From a virus (Duplodnaviria > Heunggongvirae > Uroviricota > Caudoviricetes), in the IMG/VR virus record IMGVR_UViG_3300017722_002988, positions 131,760 through 195,759 of that record: 64,000 nt of DNA; one strand, 5' to 3'. Every line of letters begins with the position of its first letter. Within the stretch, counting starts at the first letter, position 1. Below are positions 24,462-63,535 of this stretch, piece by piece. Position numbers and translations under genes: made by a program. The notes under the pieces are model-generated. The model was not told where the DNA came from, searched no databases, and was given only the letters and a program-made list of their open reading frames with translations.

Positions 24462-24739
24462 TGTTTCGCAAACGTTATCCCTACGTCGTTGAGCTGCTTC
24501 ATAGCGGCCATCATCCCTACGTTTCTGATCCCACCTACGACATGTTCGAGGGGATCAAGCAGGAACAGGTTCACGTGATGGCCACGGGCTATGATGATGC
24601 GGCCAAGCGAGCATTCCGTGAATCCAAAGTCCGGTCGTGGAGAACCACGGTTTGGACTGTTCGTCATAAAGAAGCAGGTGAGCATCTGCTTCCGGGCCGC
24701 CCGGCCCCATTCTATCGCTGTGGACAGAAAGCTAAATAA
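24461..24739 (+). CDS. Hypothetical protein
   Basis: TAATG coupled, 92 aa. Confidence 0.55.
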   Translation: MFRKRYPYVVELLHSGHHPYVSDPTYDMFEGIKQEQVHVMATGYDDAAKRAFRESKVRSWRTTVWTVRHKEAGEHLLPGRPAPFYRCGQKAK

Positions 24740-25683
24740 TGAAAAAAACCGTAATCGTTGACATGGACGGCACGATCGCCGACTGCGAGCATCGCAGACA
24801 CCACGTCGACACTGGAAACTGGCCTGCCTTCTTCGAGGGCATGCATGAGGATGGCGTGTTCGAACATACCCGCGAGGTCGTGTTCGCTCTGCATGCTGCA
24901 GGTTATGCCATCGTAATCGTTACGGCTCGTCCGGACGAGAACGACTATCGTGCCAAGTCGGTTGAGTGGCTGAACCGTCATGGGTTCACTTACGACGCCA
25001 TCTACATGCGCAAGGGCGGTGACTATCGCAAGGACAATATCGTCAAGAAGGAAATCCTGATGGATTTGCTGAACGATGGGTATGAGCCGGTGATGGCGCT
25101 GGATGACCGCAATCAGGTCGTTGCCATGTGGCGCGAGATGGGTATCCCCTGCATGCAGGTGAACGAAGGCGACTTCGACAACCGCCAGTCGCGCTACGTG
25201 CGTGACAATCAGGGCAAGGAAATGCTGCACATGATGATCGGCCCTTCGGGTGCCGGTAAGTCGACTCTGATCAAGCAGCGTTACCGTCCTGAGGACGTGG
25301 TCTCGTCTGACCAAGTCCGTCGTGATCTGTTCGGTTCGCATGACGCTGCCCATGTCCACAACCCTGACAACCTGGCTCTGACGTGGGCTTACACCCACAA
25401 GCTGGTTCAGGCTCGGATGGAATGTGGTCTGTTCACCGTTCTGGACTCGACTGGACTGCGCCGTAAGGACCGTCTGTCGGTTCTGGAACTGGTTCCTCAT
25501 GGGTATCTGGTCCGCTATGTCGTGGTCGACCGTGACTATGACGAGAAGATCAAGGACCGTGATTGGCGTCCTGTGGCTCTGATCGACAAGCACCATCAGG
25601 CCATGAAGTCGGCTCTGAAGGACGTCATGAAGGCGGATGGCTTCGGCCATATCGTCGTGGAAGACACGCGTAAGAAGCGCTGA
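24739..25683 (+). CDS. pnk: Polynucleotide 3'-phosphatase/5'-kinase with HAD domain N-terminal and kinase C-terminal
   Basis: DMDGT, DYRKD.IVK.E, DDR.QVV.MWR (T4 PseT-like phosphatase); GPSGAGKST, SSD.VR, VLDST (P-loop kinase). Confidence 0.85.
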   Translation: MKKTVIVDMDGTIADCEHRRHHVDTGNWPAFFEGMHEDGVFEHTREVVFALHAAGYAIVIVTARPDENDYRAKSVEWLNRHGFTYDAIYMRKGGDYRKDNIVKKEILMDLLNDGYEPVMALDDRNQVVAMWREMGIPCMQVNEGDFDNRQSRYVRDNQGKEMLHMMIGPSGAGKSTLIKQRYRPEDVVSSDQVRRDLFGSHDAAHVHNPDNLALTWAYTHKLVQARMECGLFTVLDSTGLRRKDRLSVLELVPHGYLVRYVVVDRDYDEKIKDRDWRPVALIDKHHQAMKSALKDVMKADGFGHIVVEDTRKKR

Positions 25684-57786: not shown

Positions 57787-57986
57787 AAATCTTTTTCGAT
57801 CTATTGACCATCATTTTTATCCTGATCGTGATGGGAGTATTTTTAGGCTTCGACGGATTCCTGGGAATCCTTCTTATGGTCACAGTCGTGGCTGCCATCT
57901 TCTATGTGGCATTCTGGCTGCTGATTTTTGGTGGGTTAGTCGCCATCGCAAAGTACATTATGGGCGAACCGCCTAAGAACGATTAG
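57783..57986 (+). CDS. Small membrane protein
   Basis: Hydrophobic 67 aa; its stop codon overlaps the stop of the convergent gene. Confidence 0.55.
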   Translation: MKIFFDLLTIIFILIVMGVFLGFDGFLGILLMVTVVAAIFYVAFWLLIFGGLVAIAKYIMGEPPKND

Positions 57987-60976
57987 TCGACGCCCCAATA
58001 AGCAGCGTATTCGTACGCTGCCATAACAGGACTTGAAACGGACTCAGCTGCGCTGGTGTCCGTTTTTTGCGTTCTAGAAGTAGCCTTACCGGACTCTTGA
58101 GTCTGAGCGTTTTGGACGACCACATTAATGTTCTTTCGCTCTGCAGCAACGGAAGCAGCCACGATGTTTGTGGCGAGCCTGTTTTGTGGAGTCGCCGGAG
58201 CCATTCTTGGTGCAGGACTTGGAGCGGGGCTCGGAGCACTAGAACCACCGCCTGGCCTCAGGTTAGCCCAGGTGATTGTAGGTGTTCGCCCTGGCGCCAT
58301 AGCGGCTCCGGCGCCGCCGGAGCCGGCCGCAGCTCCTGCTCCGTGGCCGGCGTGTCCTGCATGACCATTGTCATTAGCACCGCCGCTACCTCCTTCATTT
58401 CTTCCAACCGAGAAGTGCATGGCATCTTTAGAGCTAGACCAATCGAAGCCCCACCCTAATCCGTTACGGCGCGCAGCCGCTCGCGTCTGCTCAATAGGCA
58501 TGTCTGTAATACCAGCCCGACCGAAGACGTGTGGGTTCTGAGCTGGATTGATATCGATGGAATCGCCATTAGCGTGGTGGCTAAATCCGCCTCTGGCGGT
58601 ACGTCTATTGGCATATCCGCCGATGGATCGAATGACATATCCTGTGGCTTCAAGCTCGTTAATGAACGATTGGAACTTAGGAGCATAGGCGGCATTAACT
58701 TGCGCTGTTAGTCCAAGCCTGCTGGTTGTAATTGTTGCGAGTGGAATTCCACTCGCAGTACGTGGACCTCCAGCGCCAGCAGCTCCAACAGTACCACCAA
58801 CACGTACATTGCCTCCACTTTGAGGCCGAGGGCCACGACCACCGGCTGCAGCAGGAGCTATTACTGGGGCTGCTGCTGGCGCCATGTTTTGTGGCCGCGC
58901 TTGATCTAATAGAGCAGTGTTAAACACGGTGCGGCCAACGGTCTGGCCACCATTGCGAAGCATTGTGTCGCGGTACGAAATGTTGGTTCCGGCTCCATAC
59001 GCAGCTGCGCTTGCAGCAGTGAATGCCACCTGGTTGTGAGGAACACGATCAAGGAACTGCATGATAGCCCGGAAAATACCCTCAACCTCGTTATGGTTTG
59101 GGCCTCTTGTCCAATGCGCTGATGGTCTGCGATTTCCGACGGTTCCTGTTACAGCTTGGAACTGATTTTCTGCAAAGAGTACGGCCAGAACAGTAAGGCC
59201 TTGACGCAAATACCCTTGCGCAATAGCACCTCTGGAATATGATCCTGCCGACCTAGCTCGGTTCAGAATGGTGGCCAAAATCATTGCGTCTTCACGACCG
59301 GCTGCGCCGCGACCAGATTCGGCATAGACCGTTCTAAGCAAAACGTCCCATTCGTCGTTGGTCATTGAGCGCCCGAGGTACTGTTCCGCTTTTAATCTAG
59401 CAGCCGCATGCAACTCAGTTCCTTGCATTTGCATAAGCGCAGGTCCAGCAATAGCTGGTCCAGAGTTAGGCCGTGTCATGTGGTAGGTTGCGGCCCCGCC
59501 ACCAATAACAGCAGCACCAACTGCGACTCTTGCCGGCATTCTCATACCAGCGCGTACTGCGGCCCCGCCGGTTTCAGCGATTGCAGGGGCGGCCCCTGCT
59601 GCTCGACGGACCATACCGACACCGGCAAGCGCACCACCAAGAATAGCTCCGCCAGCTAGCGCAGCGCTATTCCGCAGGCCGTTCATTGCTCCGCGACCTA
59701 GCTTCCTAGCAAACTCGCCTAGCGTAATGTTGCCAGCGATGAGGTCGTATATTTGTTCGGCTACAAATTCAGCCGACAGGGCAGCGATTGCTCCGCCTAG
59801 ACCGCCTAGAATAGCCCCTACAGCCATACCAACAGGGGTTGCAGGAATAGCAATTGCCGCTCCTACTGCTGCACCCATAGCAACACCCGCCGGGCCAGCA
59901 ATGATCATAGCAATAGCACCGATCAGCTCCCTCTTAACGCTATCGTTTACGGTCCCACCAGACAGTATGGCGGCTTCTAACGGGTCGATAAGGGCAAATA
60001 CCGTGGTAAGAATCGGGAATCGGCCGACGGGGCCCGCTCTAAGTCCTTTCAGAAACCTAAAGACCTTTGCCACACCTCGTCCAGCACCAGACCCGAGGGC
60101 GCTACCAAGACGGCCCTGGCTAGCGGCCATGCTAAGGCTTGGTCGCCTAACTGCGTTATCGTTTGCTGCAATAGGGCCAGCCCCGCCAGCTGGTCTTACC
60201 GGCGTTGCCCTAATACGGTTGCCAGCATCGGTAGCATACGCCGCTGACGTACCGGCAACTCCAATCTGTTGCAGCATCGATCCGGCTGGAGCCCCGAGCG
60301 AACCTTGAGATCCTGCAGGCGATACTCCGCCTGAGGCAGGTGATTCGCCATTTCCACCCCCGAAGAATTTACCAAACGTGGTAATGCCGGCAAGTAAGGC
60401 TCCGGCTGCTGCAGTAAGCCCTAAAACTAGGAGCGGAGATATGCCGCCTTGTTGATTTCCATTGACAGCATTGAACATGCCATTTCCGCCAACTCCACCC
60501 GCGAACCCGCCAGCAGAGTTATTGCTGGCCTCGATCGACATTTCTCTCAGAGATCTGGTGTCCCATGTGGCCTTGGCCACTGAGAACTTCAACATATTCC
60601 TGACAGTGTTATCGATAGATGCTAGAGAATTGGCCGAAGAAGCCTGAAGCCTTAGGGACTCAGTCTCAAAATTACCGTTTGGGTTGTAGGAAACTTTACG
60701 TGGGCTGTTATCGTTATTCGGTGCTGTGAAACCACGCGAAGATGCTAATCCTGCACGGCCGCCGGAGAGGCCGCCGCCGCCCATGGAGGTTGCTGATCCG
60801 CCGCTGTCACCAGCGGTGGATTGTGTGTTATTACCAGCTAGTGACCGTGAGACAAGCCAACCAGCTCCTACGAGGCCGGCGGCCGGCGCAGCAATCCTTG
60901 CAGCCCTAGGTACTACACGGGCTCCGCCCCCTAGCATCCTGCCGCCGATCGTGACTGCTTTGTCCCAGACTCCCAT
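57983..60976 (-). CDS. Tape-measure/baseplate-hub-like protein with SleB-like and M15 peptidase domains
   Basis: 997 aa, A/G-rich. TVYAESG...ILATILNRAR...QFQAV (cell wall hydrolase); RSIGGYANR...SHHANGDSIDINP...WG.DW...DAMHFS (M15). Confidence 0.7.
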   Translation of the reverse strand: MGVWDKAVTIGGRMLGGGARVVPRAARIAAPAAGLVGAGWLVSRSLAGNNTQSTAGDSGGSATSMGGGGLSGGRAGLASSRGFTAPNNDNSPRKVSYNPNGNFETESLRLQASSANSLASIDNTVRNMLKFSVAKATWDTRSLREMSIEASNNSAGGFAGGVGGNGMFNAVNGNQQGGISPLLVLGLTAAAGALLAGITTFGKFFGGGNGESPASGGVSPAGSQGSLGAPAGSMLQQIGVAGTSAAYATDAGNRIRATPVRPAGGAGPIAANDNAVRRPSLSMAASQGRLGSALGSGAGRGVAKVFRFLKGLRAGPVGRFPILTTVFALIDPLEAAILSGGTVNDSVKRELIGAIAMIIAGPAGVAMGAAVGAAIAIPATPVGMAVGAILGGLGGAIAALSAEFVAEQIYDLIAGNITLGEFARKLGRGAMNGLRNSAALAGGAILGGALAGVGMVRRAAGAAPAIAETGGAAVRAGMRMPARVAVGAAVIGGGAATYHMTRPNSGPAIAGPALMQMQGTELHAAARLKAEQYLGRSMTNDEWDVLLRTVYAESGRGAAGREDAMILATILNRARSAGSYSRGAIAQGYLRQGLTVLAVLFAENQFQAVTGTVGNRRPSAHWTRGPNHNEVEGIFRAIMQFLDRVPHNQVAFTAASAAAYGAGTNISYRDTMLRNGGQTVGRTVFNTALLDQARPQNMAPAAAPVIAPAAAGGRGPRPQSGGNVRVGGTVGAAGAGGPRTASGIPLATITTSRLGLTAQVNAAYAPKFQSFINELEATGYVIRSIGGYANRRTARGGFSHHANGDSIDINPAQNPHVFGRAGITDMPIEQTRAAARRNGLGWGFDWSSSKDAMHFSVGRNEGGSGGANDNGHAGHAGHGAGAAAGSGGAGAAMAPGRTPTITWANLRPGGGSSAPSPAPSPAPRMAPATPQNRLATNIVAASVAAERKNINVVVQNAQTQESGKATSRTQKTDTSAAESVSSPVMAAYEYAAYWGVD

Positions 60977-61140
60977 TATTCTGCTTTCGTGGCCTCTAGA
61001 TGCGATGCGAGCATATCAATATAGAGGTCCCACTCAAACGGAATGAGGTTCTCCAACTCGGCAATGGAGTATTTATGTAGATGAACCAACGTGAAGATTG
61101 TCTGGTAATAAGAGAGTAGTGACCTGTGGATTAGCCCCAG
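60976..61140 (-). CDS. 51: gp51-like baseplate/tail assembly ORF lacking a start codon (not in ORF track)
   Basis: Hand translation LGLIHRSLLSYYQTIFTLVHLHKYSIAELENLIPFEWDLYIDMLASHLEATKAE*; TAATG overlap with the next gene. Confidence 0.8.
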   Translation of the reverse strand: MGLIHRSLLSYYQTIFTLVHLHKYSIAELENLIPFEWDLYIDMLASHLEATKAE

Positions 61141-61850
61141 GTAAAAAAATCGTTTAGGCCCTCGAATGTCAGGGTCTTCGTTTTCTTGTCTTTGGTCTTG
61201 TACGTAATTTCATGCTTCATCGAAGGAATCGTATCGAAGAACTCTTGGATCTTGCCGAAGACTGGAACCGGAATCGTATCGATGAACTCAGTCTGTTGGG
61301 CAGGAGTATACTCGTCGAAAGCATAGACATTCTCAGAATCAAACACGTCTTCAATACACGCCGCCACGATCTTCGTGAGGACTTCATCTTGGTTCAGCCC
61401 TGGCTTCTTGTATTCTACAGTCTGTTCGACCGTTGGGAAGCGCATACGCAGTCCTAGACCACGCTCATCATCAATCATGACAATAGGGTCGTTCTTTTCG
61501 TTCTTTGCAATCTCTACTTCATCAAGATTGACTTTGATCGTGTAGACCTGGCCATCTTCAGGATCCGTGTACTTAAACTCAATGGAGTTAGAAACAGACT
61601 TAGCTCTCAGTTTCAGGAAGATGTATTCGAGATCGAAGTACGCTAGCTTGTCGATCTTGAAGTTCTCTTCTTGAACACAGTTGTTGATGATCTGCTTGAG
61701 GGCGACAATAATGTCACGCTCCTCTTTGGATTCTTGGGCGATCAGCAAGATCTTCTCTTCCTTCACCAAGAAAGGCCTGAAGAGAACTTCTCTATCCATG
61801 GAAGGAACTTTGATAGGGAACAAAGGCATTGCGATTTTAGGTAGTGTCAT
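61131..61850 (-). CDS. 26: gp26-like baseplate hub assembly protein
   Basis: LPKI..P.F.I.VPS....V.FRPFLVKEEKILL...FDLEYIFLKLRAKSV...FF.TIP...GLNDFF. Confidence 0.88.
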   Translation of the reverse strand: MTLPKIAMPLFPIKVPSMDREVLFRPFLVKEEKILLIAQESKEERDIIVALKQIINNCVQEENFKIDKLAYFDLEYIFLKLRAKSVSNSIEFKYTDPEDGQVYTIKVNLDEVEIAKNEKNDPIVMIDDERGLGLRMRFPTVEQTVEYKKPGLNQDEVLTKIVAACIEDVFDSENVYAFDEYTPAQQTEFIDTIPVPVFGKIQEFFDTIPSMKHEITYKTKDKKTKTLTFEGLNDFFTWG

Positions 61851-61866: not shown

Positions 61867-62811
61867 TTAGAATCCGAAACGTCTACGGACGTTGTCGACT
61901 ATAGTTTGCTTGCTGCCGTTAACCAGATTCTGAATATCAGCTATTCTCTGTGGCACGCTTGTTAGATTCTGGCCTAGCGATTGGAGGCCGAGGTTTGGCG
62001 GTAACGAACCCGTTAACCTAGCGAATCTATTGAGTAGGGGTTCTTGTCTATTTATGTCGCGGTTCAGAGGCTGTGGACCTTCGCGCTCATCACCATTCGT
62101 CCGCTCTGGATCGTGATACTTCACTGACCAATCCATATAGTCCCAAGTCACATCGAGTCTCATGAATTGGTCAGAGTTTCCCCACGACAAAGGAATTGGG
62201 TTAATGGCGATTGGATATGCTGAGTTGAGTGTCAGCTCAATGATCTTATCGTTGAGTTCGTTGTAAACGAGAATAGTGACATTGGATCTATAGTCATCCT
62301 TATATGCCACTTCATACGGGGTTCTGCCAAATCCATTAACAGCTGACATGCCTTGCGACGAATCGAACCCAACCATATACGTCATCCAATCGTAAAAGAA
62401 TGAATGAATAGATCCGGCGCCGTCGACGATATAGGAAGCTGAGATAGCACCGAAAATGGGTAGGTACGGATGTTTCTCAGTTGGGCCAACACCAAAGCGT
62501 CTGATCTCTTCAGATTCTGCAAAGGAGATGCCCGGCAGGGTGGATGTGTCACAGCGCAGAGCTACCTGCTTGACCGAGTTAGCATCATAGTGCTCCAACA
62601 GCCCTTTCGGCAATGTGAAGAGCATCAGGTGCCGGCTTGTGTCCAGAAGTGTCTTGGTGGAAATCTCAGTTAGGAATGTGCTTAGGCTGAAACCAGAAGT
62701 TGGCCTCCGGCCTGTAACAACGATTTCATCAAGCTCGTATGTAGCATCTTCGGGTACTCCCGTTGCGGGCCTGATTGAGTCTTTGAGAATGTTTGAAAGC
62801 GTGCCGCTCAT
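61867..62811 (-). CDS. 54: Baseplate tail-tube initiator (gp54-like)
   Basis: LRC....LPG...PY...F..I...FF.DW...Y..DY...I.VYN...AYP.AI...L.W...L.VT..Y. Confidence 0.7.
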   Translation of the reverse strand: MSGTLSNILKDSIRPATGVPEDATYELDEIVVTGRRPTSGFSLSTFLTEISTKTLLDTSRHLMLFTLPKGLLEHYDANSVKQVALRCDTSTLPGISFAESEEIRRFGVGPTEKHPYLPIFGAISASYIVDGAGSIHSFFYDWMTYMVGFDSSQGMSAVNGFGRTPYEVAYKDDYRSNVTILVYNELNDKIIELTLNSAYPIAINPIPLSWGNSDQFMRLDVTWDYMDWSVKYHDPERTNGDEREGPQPLNRDINRQEPLLNRFARLTGSLPPNLGLQSLGQNLTSVPQRIADIQNLVNGSKQTIVDNVRRRFGF

Positions 62812-62896: not shown

Positions 62897-63535
62897 TTAG
62901 TATGAGCCAACACTGTTGACAGAGTCTTTCTGTACTCTAATTGCTTTCTGCTTCTTGAAGCGTTCCAGAGGAAGCATAGCACAATAATCCCACTCAGTGA
63001 TCGGAACCTCAACCATGTTAGATTTCACGTGATTGTAGAGATACCTTTTTACGCACGGCTTGAACCACTTCATCCTTGATGATGCAGCAAGCATCTTATA
63101 ATTAATTCGAAGTTTTGTGGTCTCATCATACTTTGTATTATTTATGGTCTGGTACAGAGCGTCCATAAGCTTAGCCCTATAGATAGGGGGTAGATAATGG
63201 AGGTTGATACCTAGGAACCCGTCTGCGTATGTTTCGATAACAAAAATGACTGGGAACTGGTCGTAATAAGGAAGTGTCTCTTTATGCTTTGGATCGTAGA
63301 AGTACATAAACATACGGCCGATGTCTTGCGCCTTCATTCTGGTCACGGAACGCTGCTTGAGCTTGCCTAGCACAGCCCTGGGGTTTACAGCAGTTACCGC
63401 TTGAGCCTTTTCTCTGAACCATTGGCGGGAGTCTCGGTTGGCTGGTTTAATGCCAGTTCCCTTCTTCATGAAACCAATATTGGCCATTCCGGAGGTGCTC
63501 TTTCCAGCAGCAAGGTCTTGGAAGAGGAATGCCAT
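62897..63535 (-). CDS. 2: DNA end protector gp2
   Basis: GRM.MY.YDPK.KETLPYYD.FP...GF.G.NLHYLP...PC.KRYL..HV.S. Confidence 0.92.
   Translation of the reverse strand: MAFLFQDLAAGKSTSGMANIGFMKKGTGIKPANRDSRQWFREKAQAVTAVNPRAVLGKLKQRSVTRMKAQDIGRMFMYFYDPKHKETLPYYDQFPVIFVIETYADGFLGINLHYLPPIYRAKLMDALYQTINNTKYDETTKLRINYKMLAASSRMKWFKPCVKRYLYNHVKSNMVEVPITEWDYCAMLPLERFKKQKAIRVQKDSVNSVGSY

Follow-up and report, generated by a model that had tools for sequence, protein, structure and literature searches.

A single gene in the 64,000-nucleotide stretch of DNA from an uncultured T4-like phage analyzed here (positions 131,760 to 195,759 of the IMG/VR virus record IMGVR_UViG_3300017722_002988, in the following called the window) very probably gives rise to two products, one of the type of gp26 and one of the type of gp51 of phage T4, by −1 ribosomal frameshifting on the heptamer U_UUU_UUU. 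This reading, drawn from sequence comparison, is carried by the slip site and its register, by an open −1 frame which is conserved as coding sequence, by the colinearity with T4 gp51, by the presence of the gene in a single copy and by the resemblance of its fold to tail assembly chaperones. All coordinates are positions within the window, and the gp26 junction lies on the minus strand.

The gp26-type gene (61131–61850, minus strand) encodes in its zero frame a short product of 239 amino acids, which matches PF12322 (T4_baseplate, 8.5e-54) essentially over its full length (profile positions 1–218 of 219) as well as phrog_150 (8.4e-58). On the minus strand the gene ends with GGC CTA AAC GAT TTT TTT ACC TGG GGC TAA, the stop codon being located at 61133–61131. 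The slippery heptamer occupies positions 61143–61149 (minus strand) and is read in the zero frame as GAU UUU UUU followed by ACC, that is, in the X_XXY_YYZ register. The run is one of only three runs of seven T or seven A on both strands of the window together, versus 6.7 expected from shuffled sequences. The −1 frame is free of stop codons from 61209 up to the TAA at 60978–60976, and its 20 codons upstream of the T run include no ATG, GTG or TTG. From the heptamer onwards this frame comprises 57 codons (60976–61149, minus strand), 55 of which specify residues that are new with respect to the short product, and the resulting peptide matches phrog_634, "baseplate hub assembly catalyst" (1e-17). 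The first start codon downstream of the run is the TTG at 61089, which corresponds to residue 21 of the extension, and an ORF finder therefore displays only a 37-residue fragment. At its end the stop codon of the extension overlaps with the ATG of the following 997-codon gene in a TAATG motif (60974–60978, minus strand). The first-pass annotation of this DNA had described the end of gp26 with the T run at 61149–61143, the −1 frame open from 61209 and devoid of ATG, GTG or TTG ahead of a conserved block, the TAATG overlap at 60978–60974 and the failure of the ORF track to display a gp51-like gene, and the sequence bears out each of these descriptions.

According to the mechanism which we propose, the majority of the ribosomes would read gp26 to its TAA and release the 239-residue short form. 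A minority would slip back by one base on U_UUU_UUU (61149–61143) with tRNA-Phe in the P and A sites and would then read 55 further codons in the −1 frame, yielding a long form of 291 amino acids which would be the orthologue of T4 gp51. We infer both the slippage and its efficiency. The predicted long product consists of gp26 residues 1–236 followed by YLGLIHR...TKAE, so that it would combine the gp26-type domain with a C-terminal extension of three helices. The predicted tryptic peptide spanning the slip is TLTFEGLNDFFYLGLIHR.

For a comparison with related phages, the junction region was first compared with the GenBank phages by blastn, which did not return any match, and the relatives were therefore gathered through protein searches. 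In this way 85 distinct junctions were assembled, namely those of the window, of P-TIM40, of Methylophilales phage Melnitz, of Sinorhizobium phage phiN3, of Synechococcus phage ACG-2014f and of 80 IMG/VR contigs. The gp26 protein of the window is 33–47% identical to these relatives, 47% being the maximum among the relatives reached, and at the divergence of these junctions synonymous sites are saturated. All 85 junctions have T_TTT_TTY in the same register (T_TTT_TTT in 46 and T_TTT_TTC in 39 cases), and the heptamer is located 0–3 codons ahead of the gp26 stop codon in 82 of them. Likewise in all 85 the −1 frame stays open past the heptamer and leads into a conserved extension of 56–73 residues. 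The codon preceding the two phenylalanine codons is GAT, AGT, TCT, GCT, ACT, AAT or GGT and thus ends with T in every junction; the first phenylalanine is always encoded by TTT, a codon which elsewhere in these genes accounts for 67% of the phenylalanine codons. While the T run taken alone could have arisen by chance, its conservation in register in 85 of 85 junctions could not. The same arrangement was also found in four more distant T4-type phages, the KVP40-like Vibrio phage ValKK3, Cronobacter phage LPCS28, Acidovorax phage ACP17 and Synechococcus phage S-SCSM2R. The heptamer thus has the X_XXY_YYZ register expected of a slippery site, its synonymous positions are conserved among divergent homologues, and T4 gp26, which needs no shift and is discussed below, is without the run.

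We then asked whether the beginning of the extension is itself coding. In none of the loci does the −1 frame offer a canonical start codon upstream of the heptamer, as far back as its preceding stop codon. Furthermore, no start codon precedes residue 10 of the extension in 33 of 84 loci, and in 20 of 84 there is none ahead of residue 21. The alignment of the extensions is conserved from residue 3 on (consensus FFYxxLSHxxLxNYYxxxFxLxQHHKYS...), and the conserved residues thus start directly at the slip site. Twenty-six loci, the window included, lack a start codon before residue 16, and for these the segment up to this residue was compared in all three frames. Pairwise amino acid identity amounts to 0.47 in the −1 frame versus 0.27 and 0.26 in the others, stop codons occur in none of the 26 segments in the −1 frame versus 23 and 22 of them in the other two, and conservation is lowest at the third codon position (0.40 versus 0.58 and 0.61). 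A segment which has no start codon, is conserved and shows a coding signature would have to be translated in the −1 frame and would be accessible only from gp26. When modelled alone, the extension forms three helices (pLDDT 76). In the first-pass annotation it had been suggested that gp51 is made only as a fusion to gp26 by slippage on T TTT TTT, and it had been considered that homologues with ordinary ATG start codons and without a T run would speak against this. Across the T4-like genomes aligned here the heptamer is retained in 85 of 85 junctions and no start codon is conserved; together with the coding signature of the start-less segment, the comparison supports the proposed fusion as the probable source of the gp51-type product.

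Phage T4 itself provides an instructive comparison. Its genes 26 and 51 are divergently transcribed neighbouring paralogues, whereas the phage of the window has one gene with a frameshift site. T4 gp26 (208 amino acids) consists of the PF12322 domain only. T4 gp51 (249 amino acids), which is encoded by a single ORF, contains PF12322 at residues 1–201 (3.9e-52) and in addition a C-terminal piece with matches to phrog_634 and to the final 45 positions of phrog_150. In the alignment the end of T4 gp26 (...EFFELL) falls exactly at the point where the frame is shifted in the other phages, and T4 gp51 reaches beyond it to cover the extension and is colinear with the conceptual fusions. The short and the long form of the window hence correspond to T4 gp26 and gp51, respectively, as they belong to the same domain family (8.5e-54) and the extension is homologous to the C-terminus of gp51. 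The T4 gp26 gene ends with GAG TTC TTT GAG TTA CTA TAA and encodes the two phenylalanines without a T run. As a natural control this shows that the protein motif can be encoded without creating a slippery sequence. The genome record from which the window is taken is complete (198,633 bp with terminal repeats) and contains one PF12322 locus, and the long, gp51-type architecture is therefore possible only through a frameshift. A CPxC motif is present in the T4, KVP40-type, LPCS28 and ACP17 proteins, within the β-rich C-terminal domain described below; the protein of the window is without it.

The region downstream of the heptamer was inspected for RNA structures. In the window a small local hairpin (ACCUGGG...CC.CAGGU, 61122–61142, minus strand) follows the heptamer with a spacing of 0–1 nt and has a folding energy of −8.2 kcal/mol in a 45-nt piece. 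It does not occur in the nearest relative (L005) and is probably incidental, and the 91-nt fold is no better than those of shuffled sequences (z = −0.06). Among the junctions with T_TTT_TTT a covarying 8-bp long-range stem is conserved, which starts 7 nt after the heptamer and which in the window maps to 61080–61135 (minus strand; arms 61127–61135 and 61080–61088). In this class 89.8% of cells are paired (slid controls 14–35%), and 21 cells are changed on both sides versus 6.1 in shuffles; the window keeps six of the eight pairs. For the T_TTT_TTC class RNAalifold did not return a consensus structure, and a hairpin specified by hand is present in part of the class only (61.7% of cells paired). 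This hairpin is often encountered at cyanophage-type T_TTT_TTC junctions (e.g., L044, L055 and L084), where it has 10–11 bp, begins 6 nt downstream and reaches −16.9 kcal/mol. Its arms are GUAUGGCUCA...UGAGUCAUAC, with some compensatory changes such as GGCGCA/UGCGUC. With a hairpin in one class and a long-range stem in the other, the two classes of slippery site seem to use different downstream elements.

These data bear on the possibility that it is the RNA polymerase which slips. Homopolymer runs of at least seven nucleotides are known transcriptional slippage sites in bacteria and phages, and a polymerase stuttering on the run of seven T could add one U to some of the transcripts, from which the long form would be translated directly. 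Such a mechanism would fit with the absence of a strong RNA stimulator in the window, and a wobble T which lengthens the run would be selected equally well under it. In 39 of the 85 junctions, however, the run consists of six T followed by C, which is short for a polymerase but a standard ribosomal heptamer. In addition, the strong hairpin located 6 nt downstream in many members of this class and the covarying stem located 7 nt downstream in the other are features of ribosomal frameshifting. We therefore regard transcriptional slippage as quite unlikely and retain ribosomal frameshifting as the probable mechanism.

A further alternative is that the gp51-like peptide is translated independently, either from the TTG at 61089, which would yield 37 amino acids, or from a noncanonical start codon, CTG at 61140 or ATT at 61167. 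This would agree with the small separate coding sequence (CDS) that is annotated in P-TIM40, Melnitz, phiN3, ACG-2014f, S-SCSM2R and ValKK3, and many of the cyanophage-type loci do have an ATG at residue 6 of the extension. The candidate start codons are, however, scattered: the first candidate is most commonly found at codon offsets 3–5 and 20 from the first codon of the heptamer and in other loci up to offset 34, and in 26 loci including the window residues with a coding signature precede any start codon. Moreover, independent initiation leaves unexplained why the synonymous T's and the −1 phase are invariant and why the frame is uninterrupted from the heptamer on, and T4 gp51 provides an example of the extension functioning at the C-terminal end of a gp26-type domain. 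Independent initiation thus appears very unlikely to us. That nothing here is functional, the −1 frame being what is left of a decaying gp51 gene or the run having arisen by chance or as an assembly artefact, is extremely unlikely. Apart from the missing start codon nothing speaks for it, the extension is intact and conserved in the 85 junctions and in four further phages and shows the third-position variation typical of purifying selection, and the genome of the window is a complete record with terminal repeats.

For the gp26-type protein an AlphaFold2 model was obtained from 42 sequences with high confidence (pLDDT 94.3, pTM 0.88). A Foldseek search of this model against the Protein Data Bank (PDB) did not yield a match, and profile searches with gp26 and with the extension against the PDB sequences gave chance-level matches only. 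The model was also compared exhaustively with 48,161 PDB representatives using VIA-align. For residues 1–95 the best matches were 3fgx (Z 8.4), 2ob9 (Z 6.8), 3klu (Z 6.5) and, at rank 5, 5ir0 (Z 5.0), with 82–86 aligned residues, root-mean-square deviations (rmsd) of 3.4–4.7 Å and identities of 8–10%. 2OB9 (from HK97), 3FGX and 3KLU (YqbN) are tail assembly chaperones (PMC9603447), and 5IR0 is the tail assembly chaperone of a Vibrio satellite (PMC12987554), so that chaperones make up four of the top five matches. ORF12 of the lactococcal phage p2 (3d8l) appears lower on the list. HK97 gp13 (2OB9), Rbstp2171 (3FGX), YqbN (3KLU) and the PLE1 chaperone (5IR0) each comprise a single domain of about 100 residues. 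Residues 87–233 of the model (approximately 61152–61592 in the window, minus strand) form a β-rich C-terminal domain. This domain gave weak matches to the C-terminal domains of Hsp40/DnaJ proteins (2q2g, 7zhs, 3i38, 3lz8, 3agz, 6jzb and 1xao; Z 3.0–4.0, rmsd 2.3–3.1 Å over 46–49 residues), which we consider as a lead only.

A conserved frameshift in the genes for the tail chaperones is a hallmark of long-tailed phages, and Xu, Hendrix and Duda are said to have described this conserved −1 frameshift in 2004. The gp26 locus is similar to lambda gpG/gpGT in several respects. The upstream ORF has a slippery heptamer close to its end, the two forms have their N-terminus in common, the gene follows a tube-family gene and directly precedes a very large gene, and the N-terminal domain has the chaperone fold. 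It differs from the lambda pair in that there is no sequence similarity, in that gp26 is about twice as large as gpG and carries the extra β-rich C-terminal domain, and in the heptamer, which is U_UUU_UUU in the window and G_GGA_AAG in lambda. Given the chaperone fold and a position flanked by a tube-family gene and by an overlapping gene of very large size, the pair would most likely work in the manner of G/GT or of E/E+E' of P2. As four of the top five fold matches come from one very small family and as the frameshift and the gene order concur, we consider the analogy with G/GT to be well grounded, and it is likely that the two products act as a chaperone pair of this type. The tape-measure-like protein would be bound by the part shared by both forms, and the long form, the rarer of the two, would use its extension to tether this complex to hub or tube proteins at tail initiation. 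T4 gp26 and gp51 are hub assembly chaperones (Leiman et al. 2010, PMC3004832). Hub assembly is thus the known role in T4, whereas binding of the tape measure or of the tube by the products of the window is suggested by analogy with the other systems, and we infer these binding partners. Complex predictions of the extension with a gp19-like tube protein and with the tube-family protein encoded upstream returned "no answer" with a score of 0.00 and are uninformative either way. An equivalence of gp26/gp51 with the lambda G and T chaperones had been proposed already in the first-pass annotation, where a structural comparison with known tail assembly chaperones had been suggested. The colinearity with T4 gp51, the single PF12322 gene and the fold of residues 1–95, which matches that of the chaperones with moderate Z values, all support it.

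Upstream of gp26 lies the gene of a 314-residue tail-tube-family protein of the gp48/gp54 type (61867–62811, minus strand; PF23849 Phage_TTP_2, 2.9e-9; phrog_45, 3.1e-25), whose syntenic counterpart in ValKK3 is annotated as "baseplate-tail tube initiator." The syntenic block opens with a gp2-type DNA end protector (62897–63535, minus strand; phrog_429, 4.2e-52), and the order gp2, tube-like protein, gp26/51 and large protein is common to the window, phiN3 and ValKK3. The large gene downstream (57983–60976, minus strand) encodes a Gly/Ala-rich protein of 997 amino acids, a putative tape measure or tail lysin with a match to Peptidase_M15_4 (7.7e-11). In most of the relatives examined, the next gene starts within about 10 nt of the stop codon of the extension or overlaps with it, and in most loci this next gene is a large one. 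The gene directly upstream of gp26 differs between the lineages, with ORFs of about 90 to 560 amino acids in the loci L005–L084; it encodes a tube-family protein in the window, phiN3 and ValKK3 and a wedge subunit in ACG-2014f. Linkage to the downstream gene is therefore commoner than linkage to the upstream gene.

Several points weigh against the reading presented here. First, the two phenylalanines are also conserved as protein sequence, and coding therefore explains part of the T run. Second, the joint probability of the conserved nucleotides arising by chance, calculated from codon usage as about 1e-33 with the junctions treated as independent, is overstated because the sequences are related to each other. 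Third, a convincing stimulatory structure is absent in the window, where the local hairpin is not conserved and the long-range stem is incomplete with its six of eight pairs. Fourth, the Z values of 5–8.4 obtained for the N-terminal domain are in a moderate range about which the search tool itself warns. Finally, we take the 997-residue protein as the tape measure and presumed client of the chaperones on account of its position, size and composition rather than of homology. It is not similar to T4 gp29, and a search with PF25671 (T4_Tape_measure) across the whole genome gave no match; neither these comparisons nor an Atlas look-up established its identity. The tape-measure-like character that had been assigned to this gene before is thus borne out by position, size and composition, not by homology.

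The arrangement with one putatively frameshifting gene is found in cyanophage-like, Sinorhizobium, Methylophilales, KVP40-like, Cronobacter and Acidovorax phages and in many uncultured ones. We are inclined to think that gp26 and gp51 are the G/GT-type chaperones of the whole T4 superfamily, that one frameshifting gene is the ancestral and still prevalent state, and that T4 is derived, a duplication having replaced the frameshift and the run having been lost. If true, gp26 and gp51, long-unexplained "assembly catalysts" of the hub, would be the short and the long tape-measure chaperone, and T4 would represent a natural experiment in which a ratio of proteins set by frameshifting was replaced by two genes. 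In hundreds of deposited T4-like genomes a gene would then be misannotated or missing; in the records examined the small "gp51" CDS starts at arbitrary positions. To our knowledge, T4-type phages have not been described before as having the conserved frameshift of the tail chaperones, and full-text searches, which did not cover subscription papers, did not reveal a report on a gp26/gp51 frameshift, the proteins named gp26 or gp51 in the papers retrieved being those of unrelated phages. The proposed frameshift is directly testable in cultivable relatives.

As to the current annotation, deposited T4-like genomes treat the extension inconsistently, either as "hypothetical" or as "baseplate hub assembly catalyst" CDS of 47–60 amino acids starting at residue 5, 6 or 22, and in the records of Acidovorax phage ACP17 and Cronobacter phage LPCS28 it is not annotated. 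A joined CDS or ribosomal-slippage feature is present in none of the GenBank records of the relatives examined.

The 997-residue protein has a long Gly/Ala-rich N-terminal half resembling glycine zippers, a SleB-like motif at about residues 540–575 and the Peptidase_M15_4 domain at residues 796–856. It would thus be a protein in tape measure position which carries two cell-wall hydrolase modules.

The one other run of seven T or A in apparent register (24742–24748, minus strand) was considered as a slip site and rejected. It lies at a polynucleotide kinase/phosphatase gene on the plus strand (phrog_505, 1.5e-48), and the overlapping 312-residue ORF on the minus strand, for which no family match was obtained, is probably spurious. 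The run is the A run opening this gene, where 24739–24750 contain the AAA AAA of the Met-Lys-Lys start.

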